Assembly: GCA_041671365.1 (NCBI GenBank)
Contig: JBAZBP010000002.1
Coordinates: 1,052 to 65,051, forward strand
Source of the DNA: Patescibacteria group bacterium
GTDB taxonomy: Bacteria > Patescibacteriota > Patescibacteriia > Patescibacteriales > UBA12465
Reading direction: 5' to 3'
DNA length: 64,000 nucleotides
Below the pieces are notes generated by a model that was given only the letters and a program-made list of their open reading frames with translations, ran no database searches and was not told the origin of the DNA. Below are positions 14,635 to 53,309 of the stretch, piece by piece; position 1 is the first letter of the stretch, and every line of letters starts with the position of its first letter. The position numbers and the translations under genes were made by a program.

Positions 14635-14635
14635 A

Positions 14636-30000: not shown

Positions 30001-31880
30001 GGTTTTTCTTTAATACAGGTTTGCCCGTCGGCGCAATAATTATCCGCCCTAAGAATATTTAAGGTGCTGGGAGTGGAAGAAACGGAGGCGTTTCCTTCTA
30101 TTCCCTGCGTAACCGTCGTACTTAAGAGTTGCGCGCCAAACCCCTCTTTTTGGCAATAATTAAGCGGTGCCTTTAAAACCCAGTTAGGATCGACCAATCC
30201 TTGGCACCAGGTCGTGTCAGATCCAAAATCTTGACTAAAATTAGTATACTGATCAAGAGGATTAAAGCAGGAAACTAAATCATTTAAAGTTGCCCGATGA
30301 GGCGAGACCGGGTTGTTGGCGATTGAGGCTACCTCAGCCCAACCGATCGGTAAAATCCGATACTTAATAAGAATACTAATATTTCTTAAAGAATACTCGC
30401 TGTTATAAGCGTCTCCAGAATCACTGTTAGTTACTTGCCAGTCGCCGTGTAAGGAGCCGTCATTGATAGCCTCGATTACAGTTTTCTTTTCGGAAATCGC
30501 CTGCATAAACGGACTATCAATAACACAGTTATCCGGCCCGGGATTTTTTGAATCTTGACAAACCGCCAAAGACGATAAAATATCATAATCCGCCTGCGTA
30601 CCAAAATTAGGTTTAAGCAAGGCGGTTGTAACCTGCTTCAAGGCTGTAGCTCCTCGACCGCTATTAGGATCGCTGGAATAACCGGAACCGCCGCCGACGG
30701 CATTATTACCGTTATCCTGCTTTCCCAAACTCTGTACTAATTTATTAAAGGCGGATACGGCTAATTGATTTAAAAAGACATTGGCGGCATCCACAAAAAC
30801 ATCGGTAGTAATTTTTCCGATATTGCCGGCTTTAATAGCGTCCGCCTCTTGTAGGGTTCTCTCTGCCGTTCCCGGAGGAGCTGCGGAATCACCGGCAATA
30901 TTAGTAACATTCAACCATCCCTTATTGGCAATGAATCCGGTTTCAGAATTTTTTACATTAACTAAGGCTTTATTAGATAAATCAGTTTTTGCCAAAACAG
31001 AAATACCGAGATCGTTGGCCTGAGGGTCAAAATATTGAGCCAGATTATTTAAATAATCGCCCGAACGCAAATCAGCCAATTTTTTATTAATATCCGTGTC
31101 CCAGGTTGTAATCATTTTTGACAGAGTACAGTTAGGCGGGGCTGGACGAGTTTGCTGAACAAGTCCTAAACCTATTTGGACCTTAGCCATTAAAGATGAA
31201 GGACTGCAAACATTAAAAGACGGAGTAGTCTCTTTCATGGCGCCTGCGACATCATTAGTAGTACCGGTAACTGCACAGGAAGTGTTATTATTGGCACAAT
31301 TACGGAAACAGCTTTGAATAGCTGTGGAATCCTGTCCACTGTTTTGGAGATTATACCCATAGTCTCCGGTATAATTATTTTGATCTTGACTATTCGATAA
31401 TTGAGCACTGCAAGAAGCATTACAATCTGTTAATTCTTTATCACAAGACTTTTGGTCTACAGACCGATTTAAATTATTGACAAAACTTTCTACGAACGTT
31501 CCCATCGCTTCATCACCAATTTGATTTAAATAAGCTCCAATATTTTGAGTAACAAACAAAGGTTTTTGGCCGGAACCACCAGAACCGATATAATTAGCGG
31601 TATCATAAGCAATTTTATTAAGAGCCGTACTCAATGTCCGCTGAAAAGCGATTGCCCCGGCTTTCTTCCATAAAAAATCGGCACCATCCTTAACCTTCGT
31701 CCATACCCAATCGGCGTAACCAACAACATCGGCCACAACTGTAGTCGCTAATTGCGCGTGAACCGGTTTAGGCGGTGCAGCGACAATCACTAATAACAAA
31801 CAAAAAATCAAGAAAAAACTTTTAATTTTTTGACTGAATCTTAATTTTTTATTTTTTTCCGGCTCGATTAAATTTCTCAT
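24009..31880 (-). CDS. Giant (2623 aa) Cys-rich secreted/surface protein with CBM-like modules and a PKD-like C-terminus
   Basis: Single uninterrupted ORF with an N-terminal signal/anchor. Four N-x-x-F-E/D-type module starts are present: NLVMDSDFNNEE, SFDNFESGLNGW, NLVNNPSFTTTTEGTEGW and VSNGDFEDKP. The C-terminal IDIDWGDGKIQTI...HIFYHNY is PKD-like. Confidence 0.85.
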   Translation of the reverse strand: MRNLIEPEKNKKLRFSQKIKSFFLIFCLLLVIVAAPPKPVHAQLATTVVADVVGYADWVWTKVKDGADFLWKKAGAIAFQRTLSTALNKIAYDTANYIGSGGSGQKPLFVTQNIGAYLNQIGDEAMGTFVESFVNNLNRSVDQKSCDKELTDCNASCSAQLSNSQDQNNYTGDYGYNLQNSGQDSTAIQSCFRNCANNNTSCAVTGTTNDVAGAMKETTPSFNVCSPSSLMAKVQIGLGLVQQTRPAPPNCTLSKMITTWDTDINKKLADLRSGDYLNNLAQYFDPQANDLGISVLAKTDLSNKALVNVKNSETGFIANKGWLNVTNIAGDSAAPPGTAERTLQEADAIKAGNIGKITTDVFVDAANVFLNQLAVSAFNKLVQSLGKQDNGNNAVGGGSGYSSDPNSGRGATALKQVTTALLKPNFGTQADYDILSSLAVCQDSKNPGPDNCVIDSPFMQAISEKKTVIEAINDGSLHGDWQVTNSDSGDAYNSEYSLRNISILIKYRILPIGWAEVASIANNPVSPHRATLNDLVSCFNPLDQYTNFSQDFGSDTTWCQGLVDPNWVLKAPLNYCQKEGFGAQLLSTTVTQGIEGNASVSSTPSTLNILRADNYCADGQTCIKEKPDGSCEVYGYCNGEKRTWNFNTDSCEPVNNTCQSFTGVNGQAVAYLQNTLNYNNCNSSNAGCRQYSLSGIYATSTGTVSWSTSNSLYLNKSLGTCSSPDNGCTELMRVKSTWGNNLVMDSDFNNEELGSVSNSGTKLNDWPLINIEEASIVQDPVSGDGKVLKLAVDASAAGGVSSNPENSLLPANFQIVTGQFYTMSADVYLENAGSVSLTVGSGSNYDMTTAVMGSWQHLNVTRSADSSFNDPNFVILGSAGITFYVKNLKFEASDWDTGYTAYGQTTSGSARIYEKLLPNYLEKTCYNNVSSAVKDYTLKSDAPAVCSAFARKCNQDEVGCDSYTNIKDYFVVTAKVASNDYCPAECLGYDVYISKGSYFNSAETENIIPATATKCSAEAAGCSEFTNLDSLAQGGEQKEYYTSLKQCIKPSTTQCASFYAWEGQASGYQLQAYSLKKDAGGTPATTAGYNPALCTADIYNKPVNDPLFNPDCREFYNASGTVAYLLSSQTITCSDNCHTYRMTDKNIDSSGNTVCLNGGTWDATSESCFYSAIPGEGQTCRASENGCREYNGSTGSNVRVISFDNFESGLNGWSSSTCFSISPISNNKDGHSLHNTCVSGEATSSVSGLVNQGSAYTLRFLGLAPTDTTLTVSFRNKDTGTKTDFSPIVIKGGSGWNIYRANLTDLDQSVGNNEELVINGGGEFYLDDFVLSEISDRYYLIKNSSQISDSCYYDLAGNYQGADYNLGCAQYTDRNNLKNNLHKFTKLCSDSAVGCEQMIDTKNYSPYGSGFWEGGVATTTCNVADPNCVMVPGDSALYAVYDAKKQCNAVNLGCSRLGQGQGGNSLIGFSDVFKLNNPNQYETILCNSGDVGCETWTNKDNNSVNYFKDPGNNVCVYRAANNASVGSKKWYKIPAKRCDLNKDKSISGSAEVDGPICLSDSDCGTGAGSCILDKTDHECAYSVFKTIGLGGGGVPIPSTDAGICDVASSGCTEYIDPVTRFNPNLVNNPSFTTTTEGTEGWGDVSLGAWSSTLTPTQQVIALEPYKLYSLNVTNGSGSGVILDFTVSVRQLLSDNNFGAATTSLAAATTTNVPVIFDSLEATSTRLSGGAIGRTIEVRELAVDYQLQSKIDKTSCTKQAQFNNGCVLFNERGVSGASGLTGLDYDAYATNNRATNDPNPLVPSSCSGNSCTANEVIKVSPNRVCSRWLSCTSYTQDPITKKKTCYAYNECNSLDNQGECNNYTTPLTGTTTTAVDGNATGYSLYNNYNLGQMEVVGRKLTVSNGDFEDKPDLTTCATKPCPCTSSNNSDRCLIDNPDVADSYGTDHPAHGKTYLMVPLGKEYTLGVSSDLAITSGDYFINYLVNTKKSNGAEAQVTITNASGAPIKTFSSISGLDWTREIHRFTLTNIAGIQVKVSHDGAPGTSPVYFDDIKIEPVLKISNDKYVASECRLYPTGDSLTCVSKNKNTITSGLEGYCLEHDPANPSVCLLWYPMDNVPTNNFKSNGYHGPTPLSYATEVSGNFDLVEKREAYLYYAKQEGGKCWDPEGDNTNLNGRPQDLASCQGDSNYFNFYYKFNCTNDNNCCYFEWCIPKTNSKVTVEATHSTSLQRTFDFTSVGIKSLNLQDAQLTKDYEYFNEHVSLNFWLTLTLPSQSSNGWYVYDGLNNVEKTLGETVSDGLQPIRIYDYTKNPLPSAETDLTLLKNFKLNYQDKSVQVVDDMGNNKAWVERVKNIDSYPTSTPPFFHFFATPYNLMKYESDINTFPFGSYGSNQGRPYGCSNSKSCGLIGSCTVEPNGPNTYCVASSSATMTSFDSDFFIAQSCGTGLGTCQPLWTRAYPLINTPSLLPYKNILKNIFLQGNNGADYSFTPPHCITSDTGLPNNVRPNCVDSNSCLKAFCSVYPTIFNFHLYSNDNNGNNVTPITGNKATSKGWYRLEFNSIVDPEQQPLKSIDIDWGDGKIQTITNQDNAPATSSPHIFYHNYLKIPDTAVHATTTDNWGFTGSQ

Positions 31881-37169: not shown

Positions 37170-37919
37170 ATGAGTTTAAACGAACGGTTAAAATTTGCCG
37201 AGATGAAGGCGCGCCATAGCCACGCTCTGCTTCCCTGGTATAAAAAATGGTGGGGCATACTTTCTTTAATCGCCGCCGGTCTGATTTTTATTATTCTCAT
37301 CGCATCCGCCGCTTATGTTGTAAATCGAGTCCAACAAATTATCAGCGGCCAAGCCTCGGCCATGAACGAAGAACAACTCCAAATTTATTTACAAAAAGTA
37401 AACGGCGACAGTACCAATTATTCCGTCGGTACTAGTACGCCAAAAGTAACTATCGTGGAATTCGGCGATTTCGCCTGCCCTTATACGGAGCAAGCTTATT
37501 CCGTCGTCAATCAACTAGCTCAAAGCTATAAAGATAAAATAAAAATAGTTTGGCGCGATTATTTGCGCAACCTCGATTCTGTCGATCTGGCCATGACCGC
37601 GCGCTGCGCCGGTGAACAAAATAAATTTTGGCCGATGCATGATGCCTTATTTGCTAATCAGGCCGCCCTAAGCGTTAACGACGACGCTCGTCCCGGCAAA
37701 TTAGTCGCTTTGGCTCAAAATCTGGGTTTAAATGTAGATCAATTCACTGCTTGCCTGACCAGCCAAAAATATCTCGACCAAATTAAAAAGGATTATGACG
37801 ATGGAAACGCTCTCCAGATTATCGGCACTCCGACTTGGTTTGTTAATAATCATACTTTTTCCGGCTATATACCGTTTGATAAATTTAATTCTTTAATCGG
37901 CGGTTTATTAGTTAAATAA
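37170..37919 (+). CDS. DsbA-family thioredoxin-fold protein, membrane anchored, with atypical active site CPYT
   Basis: 249 aa with an N-terminal TM. The VTIVEFGDFACPYTEQ context matches DsbA/thiol:disulfide interchange proteins, but the second Cys is replaced by Thr. Confidence 0.8.
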   Translation: MSLNERLKFAEMKARHSHALLPWYKKWWGILSLIAAGLIFIILIASAAYVVNRVQQIISGQASAMNEEQLQIYLQKVNGDSTNYSVGTSTPKVTIVEFGDFACPYTEQAYSVVNQLAQSYKDKIKIVWRDYLRNLDSVDLAMTARCAGEQNKFWPMHDALFANQAALSVNDDARPGKLVALAQNLGLNVDQFTACLTSQKYLDQIKKDYDDGNALQIIGTPTWFVNNHTFSGYIPFDKFNSLIGGLLVK

Positions 37920-37920
37920 T

Positions 37921-38466
37921 ATGGAAACGATTCGCATTCACGGCCGCGGCGGGCAAGGAGTGGTAACGGCCGCCGAGTTAATCGCTATCGCCGCCTTTTA
38001 TGATGGACACGAAGCCCAGGCTTTTCCTAATTTCGGCGTAGAAAGAAGCGGCGCCCCAATCCAATCTTTCGCGCGAATTGACAGTCGACCGATTATTACC
38101 CGGGAACAAGTATATGAACCAACAGTGTTAATTATTCAAGACAGCACCCTAATCGACACGGTCGATGTTTTTAACGGAATCAATAAAAATACTAAAATAA
38201 TTATAAACTCCCCTAAAAATCGCTGGCCAAATCTAAAACTAAAATCTAAAAATTTATATTTTTCGCCGGCTACGGAAATTGCTCTAAAAATTTTAGGAAG
38301 GAATATCGTTAATACCGTTATCTTGGGCGCTGTAGTTAAATATACCGGCCTAATCTCTTTAGAATCGTTAAAAAAAGCCGTAAGCGAAAAATTTAAAGAC
38401 AAGGGAGAAGAAGTAATTAAAAAAAATATAGAAGCGATAAAAATGATTTATGAAAAAAATAGCTAA
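37921..38466 (+). CDS. porG: 2-oxoacid (pyruvate):ferredoxin oxidoreductase gamma subunit
   Basis: 181 aa with IRIHGRGGQGVVTAAELIA. Confidence 0.85.
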   Translation: METIRIHGRGGQGVVTAAELIAIAAFYDGHEAQAFPNFGVERSGAPIQSFARIDSRPIITREQVYEPTVLIIQDSTLIDTVDVFNGINKNTKIIINSPKNRWPNLKLKSKNLYFSPATEIALKILGRNIVNTVILGAVVKYTGLISLESLKKAVSEKFKDKGEEVIKKNIEAIKMIYEKNS

Positions 38467-38734
38467 AAATATCGGCCTGATAACTCAACCCGGAACCAGT
38501 TTAAAAAACAAAACCGGCCCGTGGCGGACCCAAAAACCTCTAACCGATCTTAATGTCTGTACCGGCTGTTCGCTCTGCGCCAAAATTTGTCCGGAAGGCT
38601 GTATCCTCATGAAACCGAATTTAAAATTTAACGCTAAACTAAAACCGGAAACTGATTATGATTATTGCAAAGGCTGCGCTTTATGCGCGCACGAATGTCC
38701 GGTAAAAGCGATAAAAATGGTTGAAGATTATTAG
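38450..38734 (+). CDS. porD: 2-oxoacid:ferredoxin oxidoreductase delta subunit (2x[4Fe-4S])
   Basis: 94 aa with CTGCSLCAKICP and CKGCALCAHECP. Confidence 0.85.
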   Translation: MKKIAKNIGLITQPGTSLKNKTGPWRTQKPLTDLNVCTGCSLCAKICPEGCILMKPNLKFNAKLKPETDYDYCKGCALCAHECPVKAIKMVEDY

Positions 38735-38742
38735 AAACAATT

Positions 38743-39933
38743 ATGTCTAAAAACAACCAACAAATATTAGAAGGATCACGAGCAATCGCTTTAACGATTA
38801 AAAATATCGCTCCGGCCGTTATTTCCGCCTACCCGATTACTCCCCAGACGCATATCGTTGAAGATCTGGCAGAGTTTAAAGCGAACAGCCAAACTAGTTA
38901 TGAATACGTTCGCGCCGAAAGCGAATTTGCCGCCGCCTCGATTGTTCTGGGCGCCAGCGCCACTGGCGTTCGCGTTTATAGCGCGACCAGTTCTCAAGGT
39001 CTCCTGCTGATGACAGAGGTAATTTATAATATTGCCGGACTGCGGCTGCCGGTCGTTATTACTTGCGCCAACCGAGCGATTTCTAGTCCGATAAATATTT
39101 GGAACGATCACAGCGACGTGATGTCTATTCGTGATGCCGGCTGGATTCAACTATTCGCCACCGATAACCAAGAAGCCATTAACCAACATATTTTAGCCTA
39201 TAAACTAGCCGAGAGTTTAAAAATTCCGGTAATGATTAACGTCGACGGTTATATTTTAACCCATTCTTATGAACCGGTAACCATCCCCGACGTTAAATTA
39301 ATTAAAAAATATTTACCGAACTACCGACCGATTAGCGGTACTTATCTTAACCCGGCCGATCCTGTGACTCTTGGCGCTTTTTTCACGCCAAGGCATTATA
39401 TGGAAACTCGGGAAGTCTTACATAATGATTTAATCAATAGTCTCAAGGTTATAAACCAAGAATATAAACTACTTAATAAAGTATTAGGAAACGCTAACCA
39501 TTCTCGCGAAAACAAAAACTCATCTCTTATTGATAATGGCTTAATAGAATATTATGGCCCAAAAAATCCCCAAACCGTTCTAATCGCCCTGGGCTCAATG
39601 GTCGGAACCGTCCGCGAGGCCATAAAAGATTTAAAAAATGTCGGAGTATTAAAAATAAAAGTCTATCGCCCTTTTCCGGGAGAGGAAATAGTAAAAATAA
39701 TCAAATCTGTTAAAAATGTCGCTGTTCTGGAAAAAGCTATAAGTTTAGGATCGTCCGGGGCGCTATATTCCGACTTATCCGCCGCGCTCGTTGCCGGAAA
39801 AATTAAAAATAATCTTAATCTTAAAAATTATATTGTCGGTTTGGGCGGACGAGATATTACGCAAAAGATGATCATAACCATAGTCAAAGATGCCCCGAAA
39901 AAAAATAATTATCTAAAATTTATCGGAAAGTAA
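38743..39933 (+). CDS. porA: 2-oxoacid:ferredoxin oxidoreductase alpha subunit
   Basis: 396 aa with the AYPITPQT motif and a typical length. Confidence 0.88.
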   Translation: MSKNNQQILEGSRAIALTIKNIAPAVISAYPITPQTHIVEDLAEFKANSQTSYEYVRAESEFAAASIVLGASATGVRVYSATSSQGLLLMTEVIYNIAGLRLPVVITCANRAISSPINIWNDHSDVMSIRDAGWIQLFATDNQEAINQHILAYKLAESLKIPVMINVDGYILTHSYEPVTIPDVKLIKKYLPNYRPISGTYLNPADPVTLGAFFTPRHYMETREVLHNDLINSLKVINQEYKLLNKVLGNANHSRENKNSSLIDNGLIEYYGPKNPQTVLIALGSMVGTVREAIKDLKNVGVLKIKVYRPFPGEEIVKIIKSVKNVAVLEKAISLGSSGALYSDLSAALVAGKIKNNLNLKNYIVGLGGRDITQKMIITIVKDAPKKNNYLKFIGK

Positions 39934-39934
39934 T

Positions 39935-41113
39935 ATGAAAAAATTACCAATAATAATTACTTCATTTTTAATAATTTATTTATTTTTACCCGGAATAACA
40001 AAGGCGGAATCTTGCCATTGGATAGGTAAAGTACCGGCTAGCTGTTCCAATGTCGAAATACAAGATAACAGTAGTCCCAATAAATGTAACAACACCAGTA
40101 CGATTGGTATCTGCTGCTGTCCTTCCGCCAGCGCAGCGGCTAAAGCCGCCGCTAAAACTACTACCGATAATGTTAATTATACTCCGCTTACTTTTTATCC
40201 TCAGATAGGTATATCTTCATTTGACGGACCTACGGCCGTCGGAAGTTTTATAAAAGGAAAAATGAGCAGCAATCTTTTGGCTACATATATTGAAGTTATC
40301 TATAATTATGGAATGTCGGTAGTCGGCATCCTGGCGGCGATTGTTTTAATGGGTGGTGGTATCTTATGGTTAACTTCGGCCGGCAATGATTCTAAAATAA
40401 CCCAGGCTAAAGAATTGATTGGCGGAAGTATAGCGGGTCTAGTAATTTTATTCAGCTCTTGGATATTATTAAATACAATTAACCCGGATATACTTAAAAT
40501 GAAACCGATTGTAACGACCTTCGTTCAAACTCTTTCCGCCGGTTGCTGCGAATCATCCAATAAGGCGATAATGACCACTGATGATAAATGTAAAAAACCG
40601 TCTATTTTTAAAGCTAACGCCAGAACTAATTCTACAATGACCGCTTGTGAGAATGAAGGATGCTGTGCTACTAATAATGTTAATTCTAATATCAACACGA
40701 GTAACTATGTCAAGTGCGTAGACACGATAGAATCCGACTGCCCGGCCGTACAAAACGGTAAAACCGGACTTAAAGATTTCTTTCCTAATCAATCGTGCTC
40801 GCAGCTTGGTAAGTGCCCTACCGAAGTCACCGTTAATTGCAACTCAATTAAAGACGGAGATAGCTGCCAAAACGGAAAAGGAAAAAATGTGGCCGATAGT
40901 TATTGCTATGGCGGGAAATGCTATGAAGGCAGTGGCATCAAGGAGGGGGATTTGTGCGGAACTAATGGTGGAAAATGTACGTCAAACGCTGGGCTTAACT
41001 TTTCAAAATTAGAATTTCAAAACGTAAATTGTTACGAATCAAATTACCAACAAGACAGTGGCGGTAGAAATTGCGGAAAAGGATTATACTGCTGTTATAA
41101 AAAAACAAATTAA
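39935..41113 (+). CDS. Cys-rich exported protein with a central VirB2/TrbC-type T4SS-pilin-like two-helix domain
   Basis: 392 aa with a signal peptide, a CxW...CCC module, then YNYGMSVVGILAAIVLMGGGILWLTSAGNDSKITQAKELIGGSIAGLVILFSSWILL, then a Cys-rich tail. Confidence 0.7.
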   Translation: MKKLPIIITSFLIIYLFLPGITKAESCHWIGKVPASCSNVEIQDNSSPNKCNNTSTIGICCCPSASAAAKAAAKTTTDNVNYTPLTFYPQIGISSFDGPTAVGSFIKGKMSSNLLATYIEVIYNYGMSVVGILAAIVLMGGGILWLTSAGNDSKITQAKELIGGSIAGLVILFSSWILLNTINPDILKMKPIVTTFVQTLSAGCCESSNKAIMTTDDKCKKPSIFKANARTNSTMTACENEGCCATNNVNSNINTSNYVKCVDTIESDCPAVQNGKTGLKDFFPNQSCSQLGKCPTEVTVNCNSIKDGDSCQNGKGKNVADSYCYGGKCYEGSGIKEGDLCGTNGGKCTSNAGLNFSKLEFQNVNCYESNYQQDSGGRNCGKGLYCCYKKTN

Positions 41114-41123
41114 TTAACTAAAC

Positions 41124-42005
41124 ATGTTAAATACAGAAAAAAAAATAAATAAATTTCTCTCCCCCGGCCATAGCGCCTGTGCCGGTTGCGGACAATTAGT
41201 CGCCGTCCAGGCCGTGATGCGAGGATTAAATAAAGAAACAATCATCGCTAATGCGACCGGCTGTTTAGAAGTAACAACTACCGCTTATCCGCAGAGTGCT
41301 TGGGGTTTACCCTGGATTCATTCTTTATTTGAAAATTCTTCTGCAGTCTCCTCCGGAATTTTGGCGGCTCTGAAACAAAAAGGCGATACTAAAACTAAAG
41401 TAGTTGTTCAAGGCGGCGACGGCGGGACGTTTGATATTGGAATCGGACTGATTAGCGGAATGTGGGAAAGAGGTGAAAATATTTTATATATCTGCTACGA
41501 CACCGAAGCTTATTCTAACACCGGAATTCAGGCTTCCGGCGCTACCCCTTACGGCGCCAATACGACAACTACGCCGAGCGGGCTTCAATCTGTCGGTTCA
41601 AAACAAACAAAAAAAGATATGTTGGCTATCGCCCTGGCGCATGGCCTTGGATATGTCGCCCAAAGTACGGCCGGATTTCCGGATGACATAACTAACAAAA
41701 TCAAAAAAGCTTTAGTCGCGCCCGGTCCAAGCTATATCCAAATCTTATCACCCTGTATTCCGGGATGGAGAATAAATACCGATGAAGCGGTCATGATGGG
41801 AAAATTAGCGGCGGCCACCGGACTTTACCCCTTGCTGGAATATACGAACGGGCAATTAACGACTTCAAGCATTAATAATAATTTTAACGCCAAACCCGCA
41901 AACGAATATTTAAAAAAACAAGGGCGTTTTAAACATCTCCAAGCTGAAGATATCGCCGCCATCCAGAAGCTGGCCGATGAAAATATAAAAAAATATAAAA
42001 TATGA
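41124..42005 (+). CDS. porB: 2-oxoacid:ferredoxin oxidoreductase beta subunit (TPP-binding)
   Basis: 293 aa with CAGCG and GDGGTFDIG. Confidence 0.88.
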   Translation: MLNTEKKINKFLSPGHSACAGCGQLVAVQAVMRGLNKETIIANATGCLEVTTTAYPQSAWGLPWIHSLFENSSAVSSGILAALKQKGDTKTKVVVQGGDGGTFDIGIGLISGMWERGENILYICYDTEAYSNTGIQASGATPYGANTTTTPSGLQSVGSKQTKKDMLAIALAHGLGYVAQSTAGFPDDITNKIKKALVAPGPSYIQILSPCIPGWRINTDEAVMMGKLAAATGLYPLLEYTNGQLTTSSINNNFNAKPANEYLKKQGRFKHLQAEDIAAIQKLADENIKKYKI

Positions 42006-42388
42006 AGACGACGCGGTTATTACAATCGATTCTGATATTTTCTCTTCTGTTATTGGCGCGACAGGCCAGCGCAAATTGCATGTGGACTACTCATAATCAA
42101 TGTATAGATATCGGAACAAGCAATGATTGGGCTTCATCGACTGAAACTAATTGTAATATTAATCAAAAACCAGCCGGTACGACTAAGTGTTGCTGCGCCG
42201 ACTCCATTCTCGGGTGTTGTGAAAAAAAAGACAATCTCGGAACCATTACAACCGCCAATATGCTTGGCGAGAATTGCCAAAATATCACAACTGCCAGTAC
42301 AACTTTTTTTCAAGATTTTCTAGCTGATAATAATACTTGCAAAGATAAAAATTCTTCTAAAACTACCGGCTCTAATAGCGCCAGCGGC
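42002..42388 (+). repeat. 387-bp perfect direct repeat, copy 1
   Basis: Line-by-line comparison with 43479-43865 found no differences. The identical spurious track ORFs at 42123..42323 and 43600..43800 corroborate this. Confidence 0.9.
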
Positions 42389-43465
42389 GATTGCTCTTGG
42401 AAAGCAATAAAAACAGAACCTTTCGGTGTATCGGGCGGATGCGATACCGCCGGTGGTGAAAAAAATGGAAATACTTGCTCGGCCAGCACAAAACCATCAG
42501 ACTCGGCCATCGCTCAAGCTAATGTATCTTTTACTTACGTCTGCTGCTGCAAGCCGACAGTTGCGGCGCCCGTCTTCACTCCCCCGAAGTTTATTTTGCC
42601 AAATATCCAAATTTCAATTCCCGGACTAAACCTGACGACCAGTTCAATCCAATCGGAATTAAACGCTGACGGATCTTATACCGTTAGCGTTCCCTGGATC
42701 GGTCAATATATTGGCGGTATTTATAATTACGGCGTCGGTATTGCCGGAATTTTAGCGGCAATAATGCTGATGGCCGGCGGGGTTCTCTGGCTCATTTCGG
42801 CCGGTGATGCTTCAAAAATAACGCAAGCCAAAGAATTAATTACCGGCAGTATTACCGGATTAATTATTTTAACAACCTCTTATCTTCTGCTTTATACTAT
42901 TAATCCGGAATTGACCCAATTTAAACCGATTGATCTGGGGGCAATAAAGAGAGAAGAATTTGAGGGAGACAATAATTCTCCAAGTGTTACTCTGGATATG
43001 GTCAAGATAGCCTCTACTTTAGGCGTTAATTGCGGCCAAGATTCTATCAGTCAAATAGTTACTAAAGCAAAAGGCAAGGCCACTTACAGCCAAGAAAATA
43101 GAACCAAAGCCGCCCCGGGCGGTTTTGTATATTTAGATTGTTCCAGCTTCGCCAGTTTTGCGCTGAAGTGTGCTACCGGTAAAAACAGCGGCCAACGTAG
43201 CGCCGATATCTTTAGTGAACAAAAAATTTGGGATCAAAAATTAGAAAGCCTACAACCCGGGAATATGATCGGATGGGCTCCTAAAAATAATAAAAATAAT
43301 AGTGGACATGTGATAATATATATGGGCAATGGGATATTTGGCGATTGTCATTCGGGTTCCGGCAAGCAACCGGGAAATTGCATCAGTAATTCAATTAGCT
43401 TTGAAAAAATAAAAAATTACGCCACCAGTCATTCTGATGGAAAATTATATTTCAAAAGTTACTAA
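42002..43465 (+). CDS. T4SS-pilin-like domain protein fused to a C-terminal NlpC/P60 peptidoglycan endopeptidase
   Basis: 487 aa with a signal peptide, two CxW...CCC modules and a pilin-like helix pair. The C-terminus reads YLDCSSFASF...PGNMIGW...GHVIIYMGNG (Cys/His catalytic pattern). Confidence 0.75.
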   Translation: MKTTRLLQSILIFSLLLLARQASANCMWTTHNQCIDIGTSNDWASSTETNCNINQKPAGTTKCCCADSILGCCEKKDNLGTITTANMLGENCQNITTASTTFFQDFLADNNTCKDKNSSKTTGSNSASGDCSWKAIKTEPFGVSGGCDTAGGEKNGNTCSASTKPSDSAIAQANVSFTYVCCCKPTVAAPVFTPPKFILPNIQISIPGLNLTTSSIQSELNADGSYTVSVPWIGQYIGGIYNYGVGIAGILAAIMLMAGGVLWLISAGDASKITQAKELITGSITGLIILTTSYLLLYTINPELTQFKPIDLGAIKREEFEGDNNSPSVTLDMVKIASTLGVNCGQDSISQIVTKAKGKATYSQENRTKAAPGGFVYLDCSSFASFALKCATGKNSGQRSADIFSEQKIWDQKLESLQPGNMIGWAPKNNKNNSGHVIIYMGNGIFGDCHSGSGKQPGNCISNSISFEKIKNYATSHSDGKLYFKSY

Positions 43466-43478
43466 AATAATTTTTAAT

Positions 43479-43865
43479 ATGAAGACGACGCGGTTATTAC
43501 AATCGATTCTGATATTTTCTCTTCTGTTATTGGCGCGACAGGCCAGCGCAAATTGCATGTGGACTACTCATAATCAATGTATAGATATCGGAACAAGCAA
43601 TGATTGGGCTTCATCGACTGAAACTAATTGTAATATTAATCAAAAACCAGCCGGTACGACTAAGTGTTGCTGCGCCGACTCCATTCTCGGGTGTTGTGAA
43701 AAAAAAGACAATCTCGGAACCATTACAACCGCCAATATGCTTGGCGAGAATTGCCAAAATATCACAACTGCCAGTACAACTTTTTTTCAAGATTTTCTAG
43801 CTGATAATAATACTTGCAAAGATAAAAATTCTTCTAAAACTACCGGCTCTAATAGCGCCAGCGGC
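43479..43865 (+). repeat. 387-bp perfect direct repeat, copy 2
   Basis: See copy 1. The offset is 1477 bp. Confidence 0.9.
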
Positions 43866-44957
43866 AACTGTCAATGGGAAAAAGGCAATTTTTCTCTAAA
43901 TTTTGAAAACCGCTGTGATTATCTACAAATGATATCGACTAAAGATGAAACTAAATGTGCCAAATCAGAAAAAATAGTTCTAGTCTCTACTGAAGAGGCT
44001 ACCTATCAGAACACCTGTTGCTGTCCAATTGCCAAACTCGCTCCTGTCACCTTCACTCCCATTAAACTTATCACGCCCAACATTCAAATTCCCATTCCCG
44101 GGCTGACATTAACTCCGGCCGATTCAATCCAGCCGACGGAAAACTCTAACGGATCTTTTTCTCTCAGTATTCCCTGGATTTCCGAATATATAATCGGTAT
44201 TTATAATTATGGCACCGCTATTGCCGGAATTTTAGCGGCGATAATACTGATGGCCGGCGGGGTTCTCTGGCTTATCTCGGCCGGTGATGCTTCAAAAATA
44301 ACGCAAGCCAAAGAATTAATTACCGGCAGTATTACCGGATTAATTATTCTAATTTCTTCCTATCTTATTCTTTATACGATCAGTCCGGAATTGACGATAT
44401 TTAAATCAATTAATATCGGGACGGTTCAACATGAAGATTTTAAATTTGCCGAAGCAAAACTCGGCTCTACGGCCGAACAATTTAAAAATATGACCTGCGC
44501 CACAGAAGCAGAATTAACTAATGGAATTGAGTTTTACGCTACGGGTTATTTTAAAATGCCTTGGCAATCGGCGCAAGACATAAAATATCTTTGCATGGTG
44601 CACATGCAGGGCACCTGCCCTAACGGCATAATGAAAGATCAACAATGTATTGAAAATAAACAATTTATTTTTCCTGATTATCCGAATTATCAACCCTGCG
44701 AACCATTTTCATCTGATCTATATAATAAATATTTTAATGACCCAAAATTGAAAGTCGGTGAAACTATCGCCGGGCCGATAAATTGCGGAGGCAGTTTATC
44801 TATGGGCAAACAAGTATGTTTTAATGGAAAAACTTATACGATAGCTGATAGCGGCGGCGGCATTCAGGGAAGAAGAATAGATATTTTAAGTTCCTCAGAA
44901 AAAGATGCCCTTAACAACACTAAGCAAGGAACTTTAAAATCCGGTGCCTGCAAATAA
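43479..44957 (+). CDS. T4SS-pilin-like domain protein fused to a C-terminal 3D (MltA/RlpA-like) domain
   Basis: The track start 43437 overlaps the previous gene. ATG 43479 reproduces the identical MKTTRLLQSILIF signal peptide. The C-terminus reads GETIAGP...GKTYTIADSGGGIQGRRIDIL, the 3D-domain pattern. Confidence 0.75.
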   Translation: MKTTRLLQSILIFSLLLLARQASANCMWTTHNQCIDIGTSNDWASSTETNCNINQKPAGTTKCCCADSILGCCEKKDNLGTITTANMLGENCQNITTASTTFFQDFLADNNTCKDKNSSKTTGSNSASGNCQWEKGNFSLNFENRCDYLQMISTKDETKCAKSEKIVLVSTEEATYQNTCCCPIAKLAPVTFTPIKLITPNIQIPIPGLTLTPADSIQPTENSNGSFSLSIPWISEYIIGIYNYGTAIAGILAAIILMAGGVLWLISAGDASKITQAKELITGSITGLIILISSYLILYTISPELTIFKSINIGTVQHEDFKFAEAKLGSTAEQFKNMTCATEAELTNGIEFYATGYFKMPWQSAQDIKYLCMVHMQGTCPNGIMKDQQCIENKQFIFPDYPNYQPCEPFSSDLYNKYFNDPKLKVGETIAGPINCGGSLSMGKQVCFNGKTYTIADSGGGIQGRRIDILSSSEKDALNNTKQGTLKSGACK

Positions 44958-45362
44958 TTACTTCCCCCGATCCATCGCCTCATTCGCCAGCCGATCCGCC
45001 TCCTGATTATTCTCCCGCGGAATATGCGTATAAGTAATTTTCTTATAAGCTAAAGAGAGATTATAAATAGTTAAAAACAAAGGCGCCAGGTCTTTGTTTT
45101 TTACTTTATATTCATGTCTTAATTGTTTAACTACCAATTCACTATCCAGATAACAGTCGAGCTCCGTCGCGCCCAGTTCAGTCGCTTTTTTAAAGGCCGC
45201 AATCAGAGCGCGATATTCCGCCTGATTATTAGTCGCTACGCCTAAAAATTCGGAAATCTCCGCGATGACTTTTTTATGTTCATTATAGAGAACCGCGCCG
45301 ATCCCGGCCGGACCGGGATTACCGCGCGCTCCGCCATCGGTATAAATTATTAATTTGTTCAT
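44958..45362 (-). CDS. rnhA: Ribonuclease HI-family protein
   Basis: 134 aa with IYTDGGARGNPGPAGIG, NNQAEYRAL, DSELVV and NQEADRLAN. Confidence 0.85.
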   Translation of the reverse strand: MNKLIIYTDGGARGNPGPAGIGAVLYNEHKKVIAEISEFLGVATNNQAEYRALIAAFKKATELGATELDCYLDSELVVKQLRHEYKVKNKDLAPLFLTIYNLSLAYKKITYTHIPRENNQEADRLANEAMDRGK

Positions 45363-45392
45363 AATATTAATTATTTATATTTTCTATTAAAC

Positions 45393-45511
45393 AATTTTAT
45401 AGGAATTATGTTTTTCCCGCTAGTTCTTTTCTGGGGAAAAAAGTCGCGAAACGCTCCTTTTTTCTGGACGAAAAGAACAATCGCTCCTTAAAACATAATT
45501 CCTATAAAATT
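45393..45511. repeat. Structured intergenic repeat, copy 2
   Basis: 18-bp perfect outer stem aattttataggaattatg/cataattcctataaaatt enclosing the 83-nt core 45411-45493. Confidence 0.7.
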
Positions 45512-45518
45512 ATAATCT

Positions 45519-47303
45519 CTATACCATACTACTAATTCTTATATCTACGATCTTTAACTGCGCTTCCCTTCGGCCGTTAAATTCATTAATTTCTAAATAA
45601 TAAACCAAATCGATTAAATCGCCAATATTAAATTTTTTATATTCTTGTGCCGCTCCAAAGGCTAGAGCCCAAAAAGCGTTCATTTTCCCCGTCAACGGAT
45701 CCGCCGCCGACAAACGCAGTTTAATATGTTGATCATCAAATCCCATAGTCACAATATCGTCCAGACGCAAATTATAACTGACAAACCGCGGCTGAGGATT
45801 GTTTTGGCCATAAGGTGCGAGACTATTAATTTGATCGGCTAAATCTAAAGAAATTTCTTTAAATTCCAACTCCGCCTCTATTTTTAATTTAGGAATTAGA
45901 GCGGTCGAGTCTAACTGTTTCGCGGCTAAAGCGAGCATCTGTTTTTTAAAAGCCTCTAAATTTTTTTCACTAATTAAAGAAAAGCCGCAAGCCATCGGAT
46001 GCCCGCCGTACTTATCCAGATACTCGGCACAAGCTTCAATGGCCGCAATTAAATTAAATCCTTCGATTGAACGTCCCGAACTTTTAAAAGCTATTTTCTT
46101 AGGAATTAATTTTTTAGTTTTCGAATCAAATTCCGCTTCTTCGATCAACCGCGTAATAATTAGAGTCGGCCGGTAATATTTTTCCGCGATTCGCCCGGCG
46201 ACCAATCCGATGACTCCTTCATTCCAAATCTGATCCGAACCGGCGACACTGATAATCACCAGGGGTAAATTAGTAGGATCGATTTGCGCTTCCACTTGAG
46301 CGGTAATTTCGGCGGTAATTTTCTGTCGACTGATATTACGCTCATTGAGTTCATTCGCTAATTCTTTGGCCTCGGCCGGATCAGTCGTGGTTAATAAAGC
46401 GAAGGCACTATTAGCGTGCGCTAGGCGACTGGCGGCATTTAATCGCGGTCCGATTTGCCAGCCGATATTCCAAGCTTCCAGCGATCGACCGCTGTTAATT
46501 TTAGCAACTTTAATTAATTCATTTAATCCCAAACGCTTGCCGATATTTAAAATTTTTAAGCCATCTTTAACCAGTTGACGATTTTCTCCTAAAAGACTAA
46601 CCATGTCGGCCACCGTGCCGACCGCCACTAAATCTAAACATTTATCGCTGATTAATTTTTTTTGGGCTTCAGTAACATTAGCTTTAGTAAGCAGAGCGCT
46701 AACCAATTTAAAAGCCACGCCGACTCCGGCCAAATATTTCCAAGGATAATTATCTCGCGTATCGGACGGATTAATATAAAGACAGGCCGGCAAATCCTCC
46801 TCTTTTTCCGGAAGAATATGATGATCGGTTATAATAACGTCTAGTCCCAATTTTTGTGCATAGGCGACTTCATCTTTATTCCTTATGCCATTATCAACCG
46901 TAATTATTAATTTAAAACCCTGCTCTACGATAGAATTAATCGCCGCTTTATTTAATCCATAGCCCTCGGAAACTCGATCCGGCAAATAAACTTCCGCCAC
47001 CCCATGCAAAATATTCAAAGTCTCCAGTAAAATAACGGCCGAGGTTACTCCGTCGGCATCATAGTCGCCATAAACCACAATCTTATTCCCTGATTTAATA
47101 TGTTTAATTATTAAATCCACGACGTTCGTCATGTTTTTAAATAAGAAAGGATCGTAAAAATCTGTGTCGCTAAAAATTGCCCGCATGTCCGCCGTTTCTT
47201 TTAAACCGCGATTAAAAAGCAGCTGGAGCATGAGCGGATTAACATCCGAATGAGCGGCCAAAAACTCCGAACTAATTTTAGGTAATACTTGCCAGTTTTT
47301 CAT
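45519..47303 (-). CDS. recJ: Single-stranded-DNA-specific exonuclease RecJ
   Basis: 594 aa with DYDADGVTS, ITVDNG and ITDHH (DHH family). Confidence 0.9.
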   Translation of the reverse strand: MKNWQVLPKISSEFLAAHSDVNPLMLQLLFNRGLKETADMRAIFSDTDFYDPFLFKNMTNVVDLIIKHIKSGNKIVVYGDYDADGVTSAVILLETLNILHGVAEVYLPDRVSEGYGLNKAAINSIVEQGFKLIITVDNGIRNKDEVAYAQKLGLDVIITDHHILPEKEEDLPACLYINPSDTRDNYPWKYLAGVGVAFKLVSALLTKANVTEAQKKLISDKCLDLVAVGTVADMVSLLGENRQLVKDGLKILNIGKRLGLNELIKVAKINSGRSLEAWNIGWQIGPRLNAASRLAHANSAFALLTTTDPAEAKELANELNERNISRQKITAEITAQVEAQIDPTNLPLVIISVAGSDQIWNEGVIGLVAGRIAEKYYRPTLIITRLIEEAEFDSKTKKLIPKKIAFKSSGRSIEGFNLIAAIEACAEYLDKYGGHPMACGFSLISEKNLEAFKKQMLALAAKQLDSTALIPKLKIEAELEFKEISLDLADQINSLAPYGQNNPQPRFVSYNLRLDDIVTMGFDDQHIKLRLSAADPLTGKMNAFWALAFGAAQEYKKFNIGDLIDLVYYLEINEFNGRREAQLKIVDIRISSMV

Positions 47304-47308
47304 GATAT

Positions 47309-47410
47309 TTATTGAATAAAGCCAACGGCCGCAGTCCAGGCCACCATCGACAGAACCACAATACTAGAAAGAATAATCCACAAAATTTTAATCACTTTTC
47401 GTCTTTTCAT
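47309..47410 (-). CDS. Possible 33-aa membrane peptide
   Basis: Hand-read MKRRKVIKILWIILSSIVVLSMVAWTAAVGFIQ. It fills the lepA-recJ gap, but there is no other support. Confidence 0.25.
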   Translation of the reverse strand: MKRRKVIKILWIILSSIVVLSMVAWTAAVGFIQ

Positions 47411-47414
47411 AATA

Positions 47415-49250
47415 TTATCGTTTTAAAATTTTAACAAAAGTGTCGGGCGGGATGTCCACGCTTCCCTTGCCGGCGGCCATCATTTTTTTCTTGCCCTTTT
47501 TCTGTTTTTCTAAAAGCTTCCGTTTTCGACTGACATCGCCGCCATATAATTTAGCGGTCACGTCCTTACGCATCGCCGACAAAGTCTCGGAAGCGATAAT
47601 TTTGCCATTAAGAGCGGCTTGAATTTTAACGGCGAACATCTGCCGCGCCAGGCTTTGTTTTAAAATTTCGACAATTTTTCGTCCCTCATGATAGGCTTCA
47701 TCGCGATAAACTATCGTCGCCAAGGCTTCAATAATGTCTTCCGCCACCAAAATATCCATTTTAACCACATCCGCCGGACGATAATCCAGATAATCATAAT
47801 TAATGGAAGCATAACCGGCAGAAACACTTTTTATCTTATCATAAAAATCCGTTAAAATCGCCGCCAACGGTATTTCGTAGTGCAATAAAACGCGGCTGTC
47901 GTCGCCATCAGTCGAAATATATTCGGTATTTTTATAAATTCCTCTTTTTTCCTGGGCCAATTTAATAATATTACCTAAATATTTTTTCGGAGTGATAATG
48001 TCTAATTTTACCCAGGGCTCTTCAATCAAACTGACTTGAGTCGGATCGGGCAGGCGTTGCGGCGTCCGGATAACGATTTCCTCGCCGCTGCTCTTTAAAA
48101 TTTTATAAGCGACGCTCGGAACAGTAACGATTAAATTTAAATTGTATTCTCGCCGTAATCTTTCCTGAAAAATTTCCAAATGCAATAATCCTAAAAAACC
48201 GCAGCGAAAACCAAAGCCCAAAGCGTCCGATCTTTCCGGCTCATAAACCAGAGCCGCGTCATTCAGTTTTAATTTGGCCATCGCTTCGCGCAATTCCTTA
48301 AAATCATTGCCTTCGTGCGGAAAAATTCCGGCAAAAACCATGGGGCGAACCTCCTTATATCCCGGCAATGGCTTTAACTCTTCCGAATTAATCACACCGC
48401 GATTAGCCGTTAAAGTATCGCCGACGCGACAATCCGCCACTTGTTTAAAGCCGGTGATGACATAACCGATTTCCCCGGTTTGCAATTCACCGGTAGAAAA
48501 ATAATCCGGTTTAAAAAATCCGCAATCCAGTACTTCACTCTGCGAATTGGTCGATAATAACTTAATTTTATCTCCTTTCTTCAGAGAACCGTTAAAAACT
48601 CGGACATAAGCCACTACACCGCGATAAGTATCGTATTTGGAATCAAAAATTAGAGCCCGGGGATAATCTTGATGGCCAATTACTTTATTTTCTTCGGTCG
48701 GCGCCATCGGAAAACTGCCGCGAGCAATAACGGCTTCCAAAACTTCCTGAACCCCAACCCCAGTTTTGCCTGAGGCGCAAATTATATCCTCAATTTTACA
48801 ACCCAGAAGTTCCATTATTTCTTTTTGAGTTTTTATGATGTCCGCCGCCGGCAAATCGATTTTATTCACCACCGGAATAATCGTTAAATTCTGTTCGAGC
48901 GCCAAATATAAATTAGCCAGGGTCTGCGCCTGAATCCCCTGCGTACAATCTACCAGTAAAACCGCCGTTTCCACGGCCGCCAAAGAACGCGAAACTTCAT
49001 AAGAAAAATCCACGTGCCCGGGAGTATCGATTAAATTTAATTGATGACCCTGATAATTCATGGTTACCGGCTGCAGCTTAATCGTAATACCTCGTTCCCG
49101 TTCAATATCCATCCCGTCCAAAATTTGCTCTTTCATTTTCCATTTTTCTACCGTTCCGGTCAATTCCAACATCCGATCGGCCAAGGTCGACTTACCGTGA
49201 TCGATGTGAGCAATAATGCAAAAATTCCTAATTTTTTTTATATCAAACAT
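47415..49250 (-). CDS. lepA: Translation elongation factor 4 (LepA)
   Basis: 611 aa with NFCIIAHIDHGKSTLADR and DTPGHVDF, plus a LepA C-terminal domain length. Confidence 0.95.
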   Translation of the reverse strand: MFDIKKIRNFCIIAHIDHGKSTLADRMLELTGTVEKWKMKEQILDGMDIERERGITIKLQPVTMNYQGHQLNLIDTPGHVDFSYEVSRSLAAVETAVLLVDCTQGIQAQTLANLYLALEQNLTIIPVVNKIDLPAADIIKTQKEIMELLGCKIEDIICASGKTGVGVQEVLEAVIARGSFPMAPTEENKVIGHQDYPRALIFDSKYDTYRGVVAYVRVFNGSLKKGDKIKLLSTNSQSEVLDCGFFKPDYFSTGELQTGEIGYVITGFKQVADCRVGDTLTANRGVINSEELKPLPGYKEVRPMVFAGIFPHEGNDFKELREAMAKLKLNDAALVYEPERSDALGFGFRCGFLGLLHLEIFQERLRREYNLNLIVTVPSVAYKILKSSGEEIVIRTPQRLPDPTQVSLIEEPWVKLDIITPKKYLGNIIKLAQEKRGIYKNTEYISTDGDDSRVLLHYEIPLAAILTDFYDKIKSVSAGYASINYDYLDYRPADVVKMDILVAEDIIEALATIVYRDEAYHEGRKIVEILKQSLARQMFAVKIQAALNGKIIASETLSAMRKDVTAKLYGGDVSRKRKLLEKQKKGKKKMMAAGKGSVDIPPDTFVKILKR

Positions 49251-52452: not shown

Positions 52453-53166
52453 CTAGTTATGTTTGCCGAATAAGTATTTTAATCCAACCAGTACCGTCTC
52501 TAATCCATATTTCAGACTTCGTCTAAAATTAATCGATGACGCTTCCGGAAAATAACGGACCGGCACGGGAATTTCGCCAATTCGGTATTTCTTGGCAACA
52601 ACCTCAAATAAAACCTGGCTATCAAAAACAAAATCATCGGAATTCTTTAGCCAATCAATGTTCTGCAAAACCTCTTTTTTATACGCGCGCATACCAGTAT
52701 GCCATTCCGATAAATTTTGCCCGCTTACAAAATTTTCAAAAATAGTCAAAACGCGATTAGATATGTATTTATACAGAGGCATCCCGCCGGCTAAAGCTTC
52801 GTGGCGGCTCCTAATCCGCGTGCCGAGCATTACGTCAAAATAATCATCCCCGATAAATTCCGCTAAATATTTAACTAGTTTCGGATCATATTGATAGTCC
52901 GGATGAATCATCACAACAATATCGGCCCCATGATCAAGTGCTAAACGATAACAGGTTTTCTGATTAGCGCCATAACCGCCGTTGGTTTCATGGATAAAAA
53001 CAAACAGGCCGAGACGACGCGCCAAGTCAGCCGTCTCGTCATGGCTGGCGTCGTCAACCAAAATTATTTCATCAACCAGGGCCGGCAAATCTTTGACTGT
53101 CCGTTCTAAAGTACCGGCGGCATTATAAGCCGGTAAGACCACGATAATTTTTTTAGAATTGTACAT
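52453..53166 (-). CDS. Family 2 glycosyltransferase (polyprenol-phosphate sugar transferase-like)
   Basis: 237 aa with [12 protein letters not shown] and VDDASHDET. Confidence 0.85.
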
Positions 53167-53174: not shown

Positions 53175-53291
53175 TAGCCAGATGAAATAATATTTTAAGG
53201 AGCGATTGTTCTTTTCGTTAGGAAAAAAGGAGCATTTCGCGACTTTTTTCCCCAGAAAAGAACTAGCGGGAAAAACATTATTTCATCTGGC
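53175..53291. repeat. Structured intergenic repeat, copy 3 (inverted relative to copy 2)
   Basis: 16-bp outer stem agccagatgaaataat/attatttcatctggct. The core 53191-53275 equals the reverse complement of the copy 2 core at about 79 of 83 positions by hand alignment. Confidence 0.7.
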
Positions 53292-53309
53292 TTAACACAA
53301 TTTCAATGG

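Follow-up and report, generated by a model that had tools for sequence, protein, structure and literature searches.

The 64-kb window analysed here, i.e. the whole stretch of 64,000 nucleotides (nt), belongs to a 133.5-kb contig of a metagenome-assembled genome (MAG) of the Patescibacteria (Candidate Phyla Radiation, CPR; locus tags WC249_). Our subject is a pair of tandem genes within it, A and B, which begin with the same long exact repeat and encode proteins with a VirB2-like transmembrane hairpin. The gene order is a dsbA-like gene (37170-37919), porG, porD, porA, a third paralog termed Z, porB, A and B, followed by rnhA and recJ on the other strand. The start of A overlaps the stop of porB (ATGA), and B begins 13 nt past the stop of A. 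The features on which the argument turns are:

39935..41113, + strand: gene Z, third paralog, VirB2-like hairpin plus Cys-rich non-enzymatic tail, between porA and porB
41124..42005, + strand: porB (pyruvate:ferredoxin oxidoreductase beta, binding thiamine pyrophosphate, TPP), its stop overlapping the start of A; synteny anchor
41999..42388, + strand: repeat copy 1, 3 nt upstream plus codons 1-129 of A; exact match to 43476-43865
42002..43465, + strand: gene A, 487 amino acids (aa); signal peptide, head H, Cys2a, VirB2-like hairpin, NlpC/P60 tail
42389..42553, + strand: Cys2a module of A (DCSWK...VCCCK), unrelated to that of B
42661..42925, + strand: second homology block in A (end of the pre-pilin stretch and two-helix hairpin), core 42740-42868
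42950..43462, + strand: predicted NlpC/P60 tail of A (Pfam; catalytic Cys in DCSSF and His in SGHVIIY by alignment)
43401..43470, + strand: 3' end of A and first intergenic bases
43476..43865, + strand: repeat copy 2, 3 nt upstream plus codons 1-129 of B
43479..44957, + strand: gene B, 492 aa; signal peptide and head H identical to A, Cys2b, VirB2-like hairpin, 3D/MltA-YuiC-like tail
43866..44024, + strand: Cys2b module of B (NCQWEK...TCCC)
44141..44405, + strand: second homology block in B, core 44220-44348
44430..44954, + strand: putative 3D/double-psi-beta-barrel lytic-transglycosylase-like tail of B (weak Pfam 3D match; fold search)

A and B have the same layout, in order: a signal-peptide-like N-terminus (MKTTRLLQSILIFSLLLLARQASA; recognised by inspection), a Cys-rich head, a second CxW...CCC module, the stretch PKF-x-P-x-x-Q-I-x-IPGL, the hairpin and an enzyme domain. 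The head, H, is made up of a CxW...CCC module, a second Cys-containing part and a Ser/Thr-rich linker. The hairpins of A and B are 85% identical in aa sequence, and the hairpin region of Z is 45-56% identical to both; the Cys-rich tail of Z has no Pfam match. At the Pfam gathering score of T4SS_pilin (PF18895; 26.6 bits) A (27.8 bits) and Z (29.8 bits) lie above the cutoff and B (24.4 bits) just below it. In an AlphaFold2 (AF2) model of B built with 54 homologs (mean predicted local distance difference test score, pLDDT, 82) two helices, residues 233-266 and 271-301, are connected by the hairpin loop SAGDASKITQAKE. A and B thus fit a signal peptide followed by two hydrophobic helices with a short polar loop, i.e. 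the VirB2-like layout, but where a pilin of this type would be small (~100 aa) and adjacent to virB4, A (487 aa) and B (492 aa) have further large domains on either side. We read this as a shared pilin-like hairpin domain, which does not imply that the proteins are pilins. By analogy to the topology of VirB2, the head and the tail of A and B should both be located outside the membrane.

The tail of A scores 23.3 bits against NlpC/P60 (PF00877; cutoff 23) when taken alone and 20.7 bits within the whole protein. Its DCSSF Cys and SGHVIIY His align with those of the cell-wall hydrolase in PDB entry 7cfl and of CwlO, suggesting that it is an NlpC/P60 endopeptidase. The tail of B matches 3D (PF06725) with 14.8 bits and an E-value of 0.033, over profile positions 29-57 only and below the cutoff of 23.8 bits. 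It is modelled with a pLDDT >90, and a Foldseek search with the full-length model of B returned MltA (probability 0.98-0.99) and YuiC (0.92-0.94), at E-values of 0.06-0.1 and TM scores of 0.16-0.40. As MltA and YuiC are the best fold matches in the PDB, the tail may be described as 3D/double-psi-beta-barrel lytic-transglycosylase-like. Some homologs have a precomputed PF06725 match (P0087, P0090, P0150). It contains Asp residues in ADSGGG and RIDIL; by inspection, the first Asp position of the 3D/MltA set reads IAGP. Serine hydroxymethyltransferases, the only matches of the tail in a sequence search of the PDB, were spurious and were discarded in favour of the fold search.

In the NCBI records A is named 'MAG: pilin' and B 'hypothetical protein WC249_02875', and both database gene starts look wrong. 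That of A (P0001, 461 aa) is Met27 at 42080, so that the signal peptide is missed, and that of B (P0005, 506 aa), at 43437, is 14 codons too early and lies inside gene A. These choices mask the identical N-termini of A and B in protein databases. The starts used here are backed by the repeat itself, by the 38 nt surrounding the ATG, which the closest relative, L002 (see below), shares without a difference, and by the signal-peptide-like sequence.

The sequence-only reading had described a perfect repeat of 387 nt, covering the signal peptide, the first Cys module and the linker, and a patchwork of identity further downstream. The identity of 42002-42388 and 43479-43865 and the offset of 1477 bp are borne out by direct comparison, and the content of the repeat by translation (for the signal peptide by inspection); its length has to be corrected, as the exact direct repeat comprises 390 nt (41999-42388 = 43476-43865). 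The left edge lies 3 nt 5' of each ATG and the right edge is a codon boundary at residue 129, i.e. the repeat codes for the N-terminus given above, Cys module 1 and the linker and ends with ...SNSASG. Blastn extends the repeat to 403 nt at 99% (41986-42388 vs 43463-43865), the added upstream bases being A/T-rich with 4 mismatches in 13 nt. In a self-comparison of the whole window three repeats were found, namely this head repeat, the pilin-region block and an unrelated 97-nt element, and the 390-nt run is the sole long exact repeat.

The identity between A and B is 100% over codons 1-129 and falls to chance level in the second Cys modules (39% nt, 22% aa). It then rises to ~65-68% nt in the pre-pilin stretch (67.5% in the ortholog comparison) and to 87% nt in the two-helix block, and is lost in the tails, which are unrelated (37% nt). 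The second homology block (42661-42925 vs 44141-44405) is 85% identical at an offset of 1480, and in its pilin core (42740-42868 vs 44220-44348) 125 of 129 positions are identical, including an exact run of 72 nt at 42797-42868. All of this agrees with the sequence-only reading, in the core down to the exact count. Overall, A and B are ~73% identical over 320 aa, including the 129-aa identical head.

This pattern goes beyond uniform divergence. In a GENECONV-type permutation of 777 aligned homologous nt with 87 differences, none of 100,000 replicates gave an identical run >120 nt; the longest observed run is 387 nt in the aligned coding columns and 390 nt in the raw sequence. Chance is thus excluded. 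The comparison with L002, a Logan contig with ~86-87% nt identity in porB, rnhA and recJ, points in the same direction. Between A and B the head has no nt difference, but each differs from the head of gene 1 of L002, the positional ortholog, at 57 of 393 positions (100% vs 85% identity). Synonymous differences, counted as codons with the same amino acid that differ in nucleotides, amount to 1/130 (1%) between the two heads and to 32/116 and 31/115 (27-28%) to L002 gene 1. In the pilin block the corresponding values are 10/64 (16%) for A and B, 24-28 of 60-68 (35-43%) to the genes of L002, and 29/59 between the two paralogs of L002.

Over the 129 nt of the pilin core A and B agree at 96.9% of positions; the identity is 84-85% to either gene of L002, 77.5% between the L002 paralogs and 66.7% between the paralogs of a more distant relative, L001. 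The aa sequence of the core is nearly the same across the genes of the window, L002 and L001 and yet the nt levels differ, i.e. purifying selection cannot explain the nt identity of A and B. Outside the tract the ortholog is the closer sequence: the pre-pilin stretch of B is 86.5% identical to that of L002 gene 2 and 67.5% to that of A. The claim of a recent gene conversion or other non-reciprocal exchange, raised from the sequence of the window, is thus strengthened by both the head and the core. By a Poisson argument, 0/390 differences in the head and 4/129 in the core would be incompatible with a single age, suggesting at least two exchanges. Assuming equal rates, the 57/393 differences to L002, set against none between A and B, would place the head event roughly within the last 5% of the time since the L002 split.

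L002 also allows the parts of A and B to be traced. Its order is porB, gene 1 (H, Cys2b, hairpin, Amidase_2), gene 2 (a different head, hairpin, 3D), rnhA and recJ. Positions 1-856 of L002 align to 41541-42393 of the window in one piece with 86.3% identity, covering porB and the head of A; as repeat copy 1 is contiguous with porB in this alignment, it appears to be in its ancestral position. Positions 2392-5830 align to 44048-47504 with 87.0% identity, from the pre-pilin stretch of B through rnhA and recJ. The Cys2b module of B, in contrast, is related to the Cys2 of L002 gene 1 (78% nt, 73% aa) and not to that of gene 2, and this split affinity of its Cys2b and pre-pilin stretch makes B a chimera relative to L002. 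Directly past the stop of Amidase_2 in L002, a non-coding stretch of ~70 nt (1901-1970) resembles the 3' end of A (43401-43470; blastn 91.4% over 70 nt, E-value 3.6e-23). It covers the last 20 codons of A, the stop and the first intergenic bases, and is the relic of a replaced NlpC/P60 tail. The upstream flank of repeat copy 2 (CTAAAATAA TTTTTAAT) is unique sequence, the first part of which matches the intergenic region of L002 past this relic. Counterparts in L002 at ~86-87% nt identity exist both for B, starting with the pre-pilin stretch, and for the 3' end of A, and the bodies of both genes thus appear to be old.

An exact match of 59 nt between the window and L002 (42330-42388, linker ...DNNTCKDKNSSKTTGSNSAS; background ~86%) reaches precisely to the end of the repeat at the module border. 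It was considered as a possible recombination joint, but by a rough estimate (probability ~0.1) it does not clearly exceed the longest run to be expected over ~4.3 kb at 87% identity.

More distant relatives hold other combinations of modules at this site. L001 (~73% nt) has the order Z, porB, a gene with an H-like head, Cys2, hairpin and an SLT-like tail, a gene with an H-like head, hairpin and NlpC/P60, and rnhA; the NlpC/P60 tail of its second gene is 80% identical in aa sequence to that of A. L084 (~71% nt) has dsbA, a Z-like gene, a gene with signal peptide, Cys2b, hairpin and 3D, and rnhA, without por genes, and in L086 a gene with H, Cys2b, hairpin and NlpC/P60 adjoins rnhA. Two H-like heads are present in L001, but not in L002 or L084. 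A Cys2a-type module is found behind H in P0007, P0041, P0044 and P0050 as well.

The tails were surveyed in 80 species-level loci that had been collected by means of porB. Of 68 loci, 44 have a pilin-hairpin gene immediately upstream of porB; of 70, 37 have one immediately downstream, with a second tandem gene following in 2 of these 37. The gene after porB carries 3D, M15/VanY, C39_2, NlpC/P60 or M15_4. Heads were sorted by module-specific hidden Markov models, as single-linkage clustering merged nearly all of them via the conserved pre-pilin stretch. The H head is rare, with 14 representative clusters at an E-value <= 1e-3 among 1.84 billion, and is paired with at least seven tail types (3D, Amidase_2, C39_2, M15_4, M15/VanY, NlpC/P60 and SLT), each of which also occurs without H. 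Conversely, NlpC/P60 tails 60-70% identical to that of A are found behind entirely different heads (P0008-P0020). The cassette-like shuffling of tails proposed in the sequence-only reading thus holds, since the same site between porB and rnhA contains Amidase_2 and 3D in L002 and SLT-like and NlpC/P60 tails in L001, with a relic left in L002. The constant exported scaffold that was thought to carry these tails does not hold, as heads and second Cys modules are swapped too. Across the relatives, heads, second Cys modules and enzymatic tails all appear, from these alignments, to have been replaced repeatedly at one site.

In one protein of 3837 aa (P0179) residues 22-75 of the H head are matched in 26 separate stretches, from which the CxW...CCC module also serves as a unit of tandem repeats in very large proteins, presumably of the cell surface.

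Patches of high identity between adjacent paralogs were found in four other species, in independent assemblies:

62-2439 in L028: adjacent paralogs sharing a patch of 97.1% over 454 nt
7816-9932 in L023: adjacent paralogs sharing a patch of 98.4% over 385 nt
7474-9150 in L063: adjacent paralogs sharing a patch of 96.5% over 255 nt
6259-8236 in L050: adjacent paralogs sharing a patch of 93.3% over 195 nt

The signal peptide, the hairpin or both lie within these patches, which stop abruptly at unrelated heads or tails. The repeat in the window is the most extreme case of this recurring pattern.

Based on these findings we consider it probable that the repeat results from a recent non-reciprocal recombination between tandem paralogs, at a locus of recurrent module exchange. 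A and B would be old tandem paralogs of a patescibacterial family in which a Sec signal peptide is followed by one or two extracellular modules rich in Cys, the membrane hairpin and, likewise extracellular, a peptidoglycan-hydrolase tail. The 390-nt repeat would be the footprint of a very recent non-reciprocal homologous exchange, i.e. gene conversion or segmental copying, and in the most likely version the 5' block of A was copied onto B. For this direction speak the contiguity of the block of A with porB, as in L002, the other N-termini of the B-type genes of L002 and L084, and the end of the tract exactly at the start of a Cys module (A GDCSWK, B GNCQWE, L002 SDCQWK). The right junction would thus coincide with [D/N]-C-[S/Q]-W, a short motif present at the start of every Cys module, whereas the pilin core (125/129) may have been homogenised by older or patchier exchange. 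The homology for such swaps was probably supplied by the conserved module boundaries and the pilin core. The mechanism may be of the RecA type, and targeting of hosts or cell walls may be the selective driver. A recombination between the two copies of the repeat is plausible as well; it would delete exactly 1477 bp and fuse an intact B to porB in frame, which fits the predominance of single genes in the relatives.

Several points weigh against this explanation or its details. Neither the direction nor the number of events is fixed, and an alternative ancestor H-Cys2b-pilin-NlpC/P60, as in P0002, needs another order of events. In one history the ancestral gene 1 was H-Cys2a-...-NlpC/P60 and gene 2 was signal peptide-Cys2b-...-3D; in the other, gene 1 was H-Cys2b-...-NlpC/P60 and gene 2 had another head. 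Both require a similar number of events, and either needs three or four exchanges between the lineages of the window and L002. Strict gene conversion and a duplication-insertion of the 390-nt block are not distinguishable, because the left border has almost no homology (A/T-rich, with the 4 mismatches in 13 nt mentioned above). The assignment of the tail of B as a hydrolase is based on a weak Pfam match and a predicted fold. Finally, the arrangement is known from one contig of a single MAG assembly: looking up the exact proteins A (487 aa), B (492 aa) and P0005 gave no independent contig on record, and scans of metagenome contigs with protein A and with a 24-nt stretch conserved between the window and L002 gave no match.

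This last point bears on the possibility that the repeat is an artefact, i.e. that a short-read assembly joined strain haplotypes or mis-resolved a repeat. A repeat of 390 nt exceeds read and k-mer length, and a graph node that was collapsed or copied would yield perfect identity. Both copies, however, are flanked on either side by unique sequence with an orthologous match in L002, and where the 3' end of A leads via intergenic bases into H the sequence is novel rather than a k-mer overlap. With porB and the 3' end of A leading into the repeat and Cys2a and Cys2b leading out of it, the assembled order would be the sole linear solution, since the alternative closes a circle of 1477 bp. In addition, the length of the repeat is not a typical k-1, and other assemblies show comparable patches with a few mismatches. 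We thus regard an assembly artefact as quite unlikely. A recent tandem duplication of a whole gene, after which Cys2 and tail of one copy were replaced by foreign cassettes so that the head is what remains of the duplication, would explain why the direct repeats are in tandem with a period of 1477 bp, and the tandem state could indeed be young given the rarity of second genes after porB (2/37 species loci). Nevertheless, both gene bodies predate the L002 split, as the pre-pilin stretch, hairpin and tail of B and the downstream genes are continuous with L002 gene 2 at 87% and the NlpC/P60 3' end of A has its relic in L002. Moreover, the segments differ in age (4/129 in the core, 15-35% in its flanks, 0/390 in the head), and L001 and L002 also have two genes at the site, all of which renders this scenario improbable.

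The recurrent swapping of heads and tails at one site and the conserved module borders might also be taken as signs of programmed diversification by pilE/pilS-type cassettes, a shufflon or a diversity-generating retroelement, with the repeat as recombination substrate, and host adaptation has been proposed for the VirB2 arrays of Patescibacteria (PMC12102498). Yet a tblastn search with A, B and Z in the 64-kb window revealed neither silent nor partial cassettes but only Z, A and B themselves, the genes are not flanked by any meaningful inverted repeats, and neither a reverse transcriptase nor a nearby invertase was found, the only recombinase lying ~35 kb away beside a tRNA gene. Both copies are complete open reading frames (ORFs), and the exchanges are seen between species-level lineages, not within a population. 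A dedicated diversification system is thus very unlikely, and a recent non-reciprocal exchange between A and B remains the explanation that we favour.

The closest known systems are the VirB2-like arrays of Patescibacteria, of which 441 have been described, with a within-array identity of 25% aa on average and 54% at most (Quinonero-Coronel et al. 2025, PMC12102498). Such a pilin array is essential in Southlakia epibionticum, the sole tested species, its role being unexplained (Wang et al. 2023, PMC10633639; PMC12857230). The genes described here are found in the same phylum and belong to the same Pfam family (PF18895/PF04956), and a VirB4-like ATPase is encoded in the same window. However, the published arrays are divergent in sequence, whereas A and B are ~73% identical and have an identical head; the published members are treated as pilins, whereas we find fusions of 390-490 aa with Cys-rich heads and peptidoglycan-hydrolase tails; and A and B are located inside the por operon, ~27 kb from virB4. 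In the searchable literature no description of pilin-hairpin-hydrolase fusions or of the exchange of their modules was found, which is not proof of novelty.

Concerted evolution by gene conversion is known from pilE/pilS or opa of Neisseria and from the VirB2 paralogs of Bartonella and Anaplasma. The non-reciprocal transfer of tracts between nearby paralogs, the sharp borders and the homogenised synonymous sites are common to these systems and to A and B. What differs is that both A and B are full-length genes of the expressed type, the window contains no silent cassettes, and the tract replaces a whole module, i.e. signal peptide and head, rather than a hypervariable loop.

Polymorphic toxin loci such as Rhs and CdiA-CT possess a constant delivery region, swappable C-terminal tips and displaced orphan remnants. 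Here, too, a conserved exported N-terminal/anchor region is joined to a wide range of C-terminal enzymatic domains that are unrelated to each other, a conserved border is the place where recombination replaces the tails, and a displaced 3' remnant is present downstream in L002. In contrast to such loci, the A/B locus has no immunity gene, since B starts 13 nt past A and rnhA lies on the other strand, leaving no ORF for one, and A/B-type sequences lack the VENN and PxxxxDPxGL motifs as well as repeats of the Rhs or filamentous haemagglutinin kind. Their tails are predicted cell-wall hydrolases instead of nucleases or pore formers, and the N-terminal heads are swapped too. With phage endolysins and bacterial autolysins A and B share the repertoire of NlpC/P60, Amidase_2, M15, SLT and 3D domains recombined on different carriers, but a VirB2-like transmembrane hairpin with a signal peptide takes the place of the cell-wall-binding domain as carrier, and the A/B genes are chromosomal and syntenic. 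A search of the repeat against phage sequences gave no match.

Patescibacteria live attached to other microbes, and to our knowledge it is largely unknown how they breach or remodel cell walls. At the locus described here, a pilin-like hairpin doubles as membrane anchor for predicted peptidoglycan hydrolases, and heads and tails are re-assorted on very recent time scales, in one event without any substitution since. Gene conversion between tandem paralogs and domain shuffling are ordinary processes; the value of the case lies in the carrier family and the comparative pattern, and its points of interest are this carrier, the syntenic hot spot inside the por operon and the freshness of the event. 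We tentatively speculate, as a possibility of rather modest weight, that the porB-rnhA site is a natural combinatorial display locus. Here, a hairpin anchor would present Cys-rich receptor-binding heads on one side and hydrolases of varied bond specificity on the other, swapped at short conserved module borders, which would let the episymbiont retarget the cell walls of its hosts; the repeat would then be an exchange in progress, and its two copies would let the locus switch between a state with two enzymes and one with a single enzyme. Testable handles are the module combinations in relation to hosts, the coexistence of two-gene and one-gene states, and a dependence on type IV secretion.

Regarding expression, a scan for promoters and terminators in this region gave promoter-like sites at the level of shuffled sequence and no convincing terminator between A and B. 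Based on the ATGA overlap of porB and A, the 13-nt gap between A and B and this lack of a standout terminator or promoter, A and B are likely co-transcribed with the por genes. The pilin-hairpin genes are interleaved with the pyruvate:ferredoxin oxidoreductase operon (37170-44957), also in the related loci L003-L082; a TPP_enzyme_C annotation sits on the porB ortholog of L001. In L084, which has no por genes, the Z-like and B-like genes come directly after a DsbA gene. The presence of DsbA fits the Cys-rich exported modules.

Elsewhere in the window, a VirB4-like ATPase (TraG P-loop, AAA_10, DUF87, TraC) is encoded at 12736-14634 on the - strand, with neighbours at 10743-17389, which marks a type IV secretion locus at a distance of ~27 kb to the genes of the pilin-hydrolase fusions. 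A large serine recombinase (Resolvase, Recombinase, Zn_ribbon_recom; 5268-6776, + strand) ends in or beside a tRNA-Ser gene (6746-6837, - strand), and this junction may be the border of an integrated element. Two giant ORFs of 1045 and 2623 aa (18458-21595 and 24009-31880, - strand) have no Pfam match. A protein of 489 aa (22377-23846, - strand) contains a Por_Secre_tail domain, the C-terminal sorting domain of the type IX secretion system (T9SS), which is unexpected for a Patescibacterium.

The 97-nt element, finally, is present in two copies at 45385-45520 and 53180-53300, in opposite orientation and 93% identical over 97 nt with a core of ~75 nt. Each copy has its own perfect outer stem of ~22 nt, the sequence of which differs between the copies while the pairing is kept. 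A search of Rfam gave no family for this hairpin element, the predicted RNA fold of which has an energy of -51.8 kcal/mol (z -9.3). Both copies are intergenic, one between rnhA and recJ and the other between 52453-53166 and 53310-55310, and a further copy is found in L002 at 3719-3837. Possible identities are a structured RNA, a terminator in the form of a long hairpin, or an element resembling a miniature inverted-repeat transposable element (MITE).

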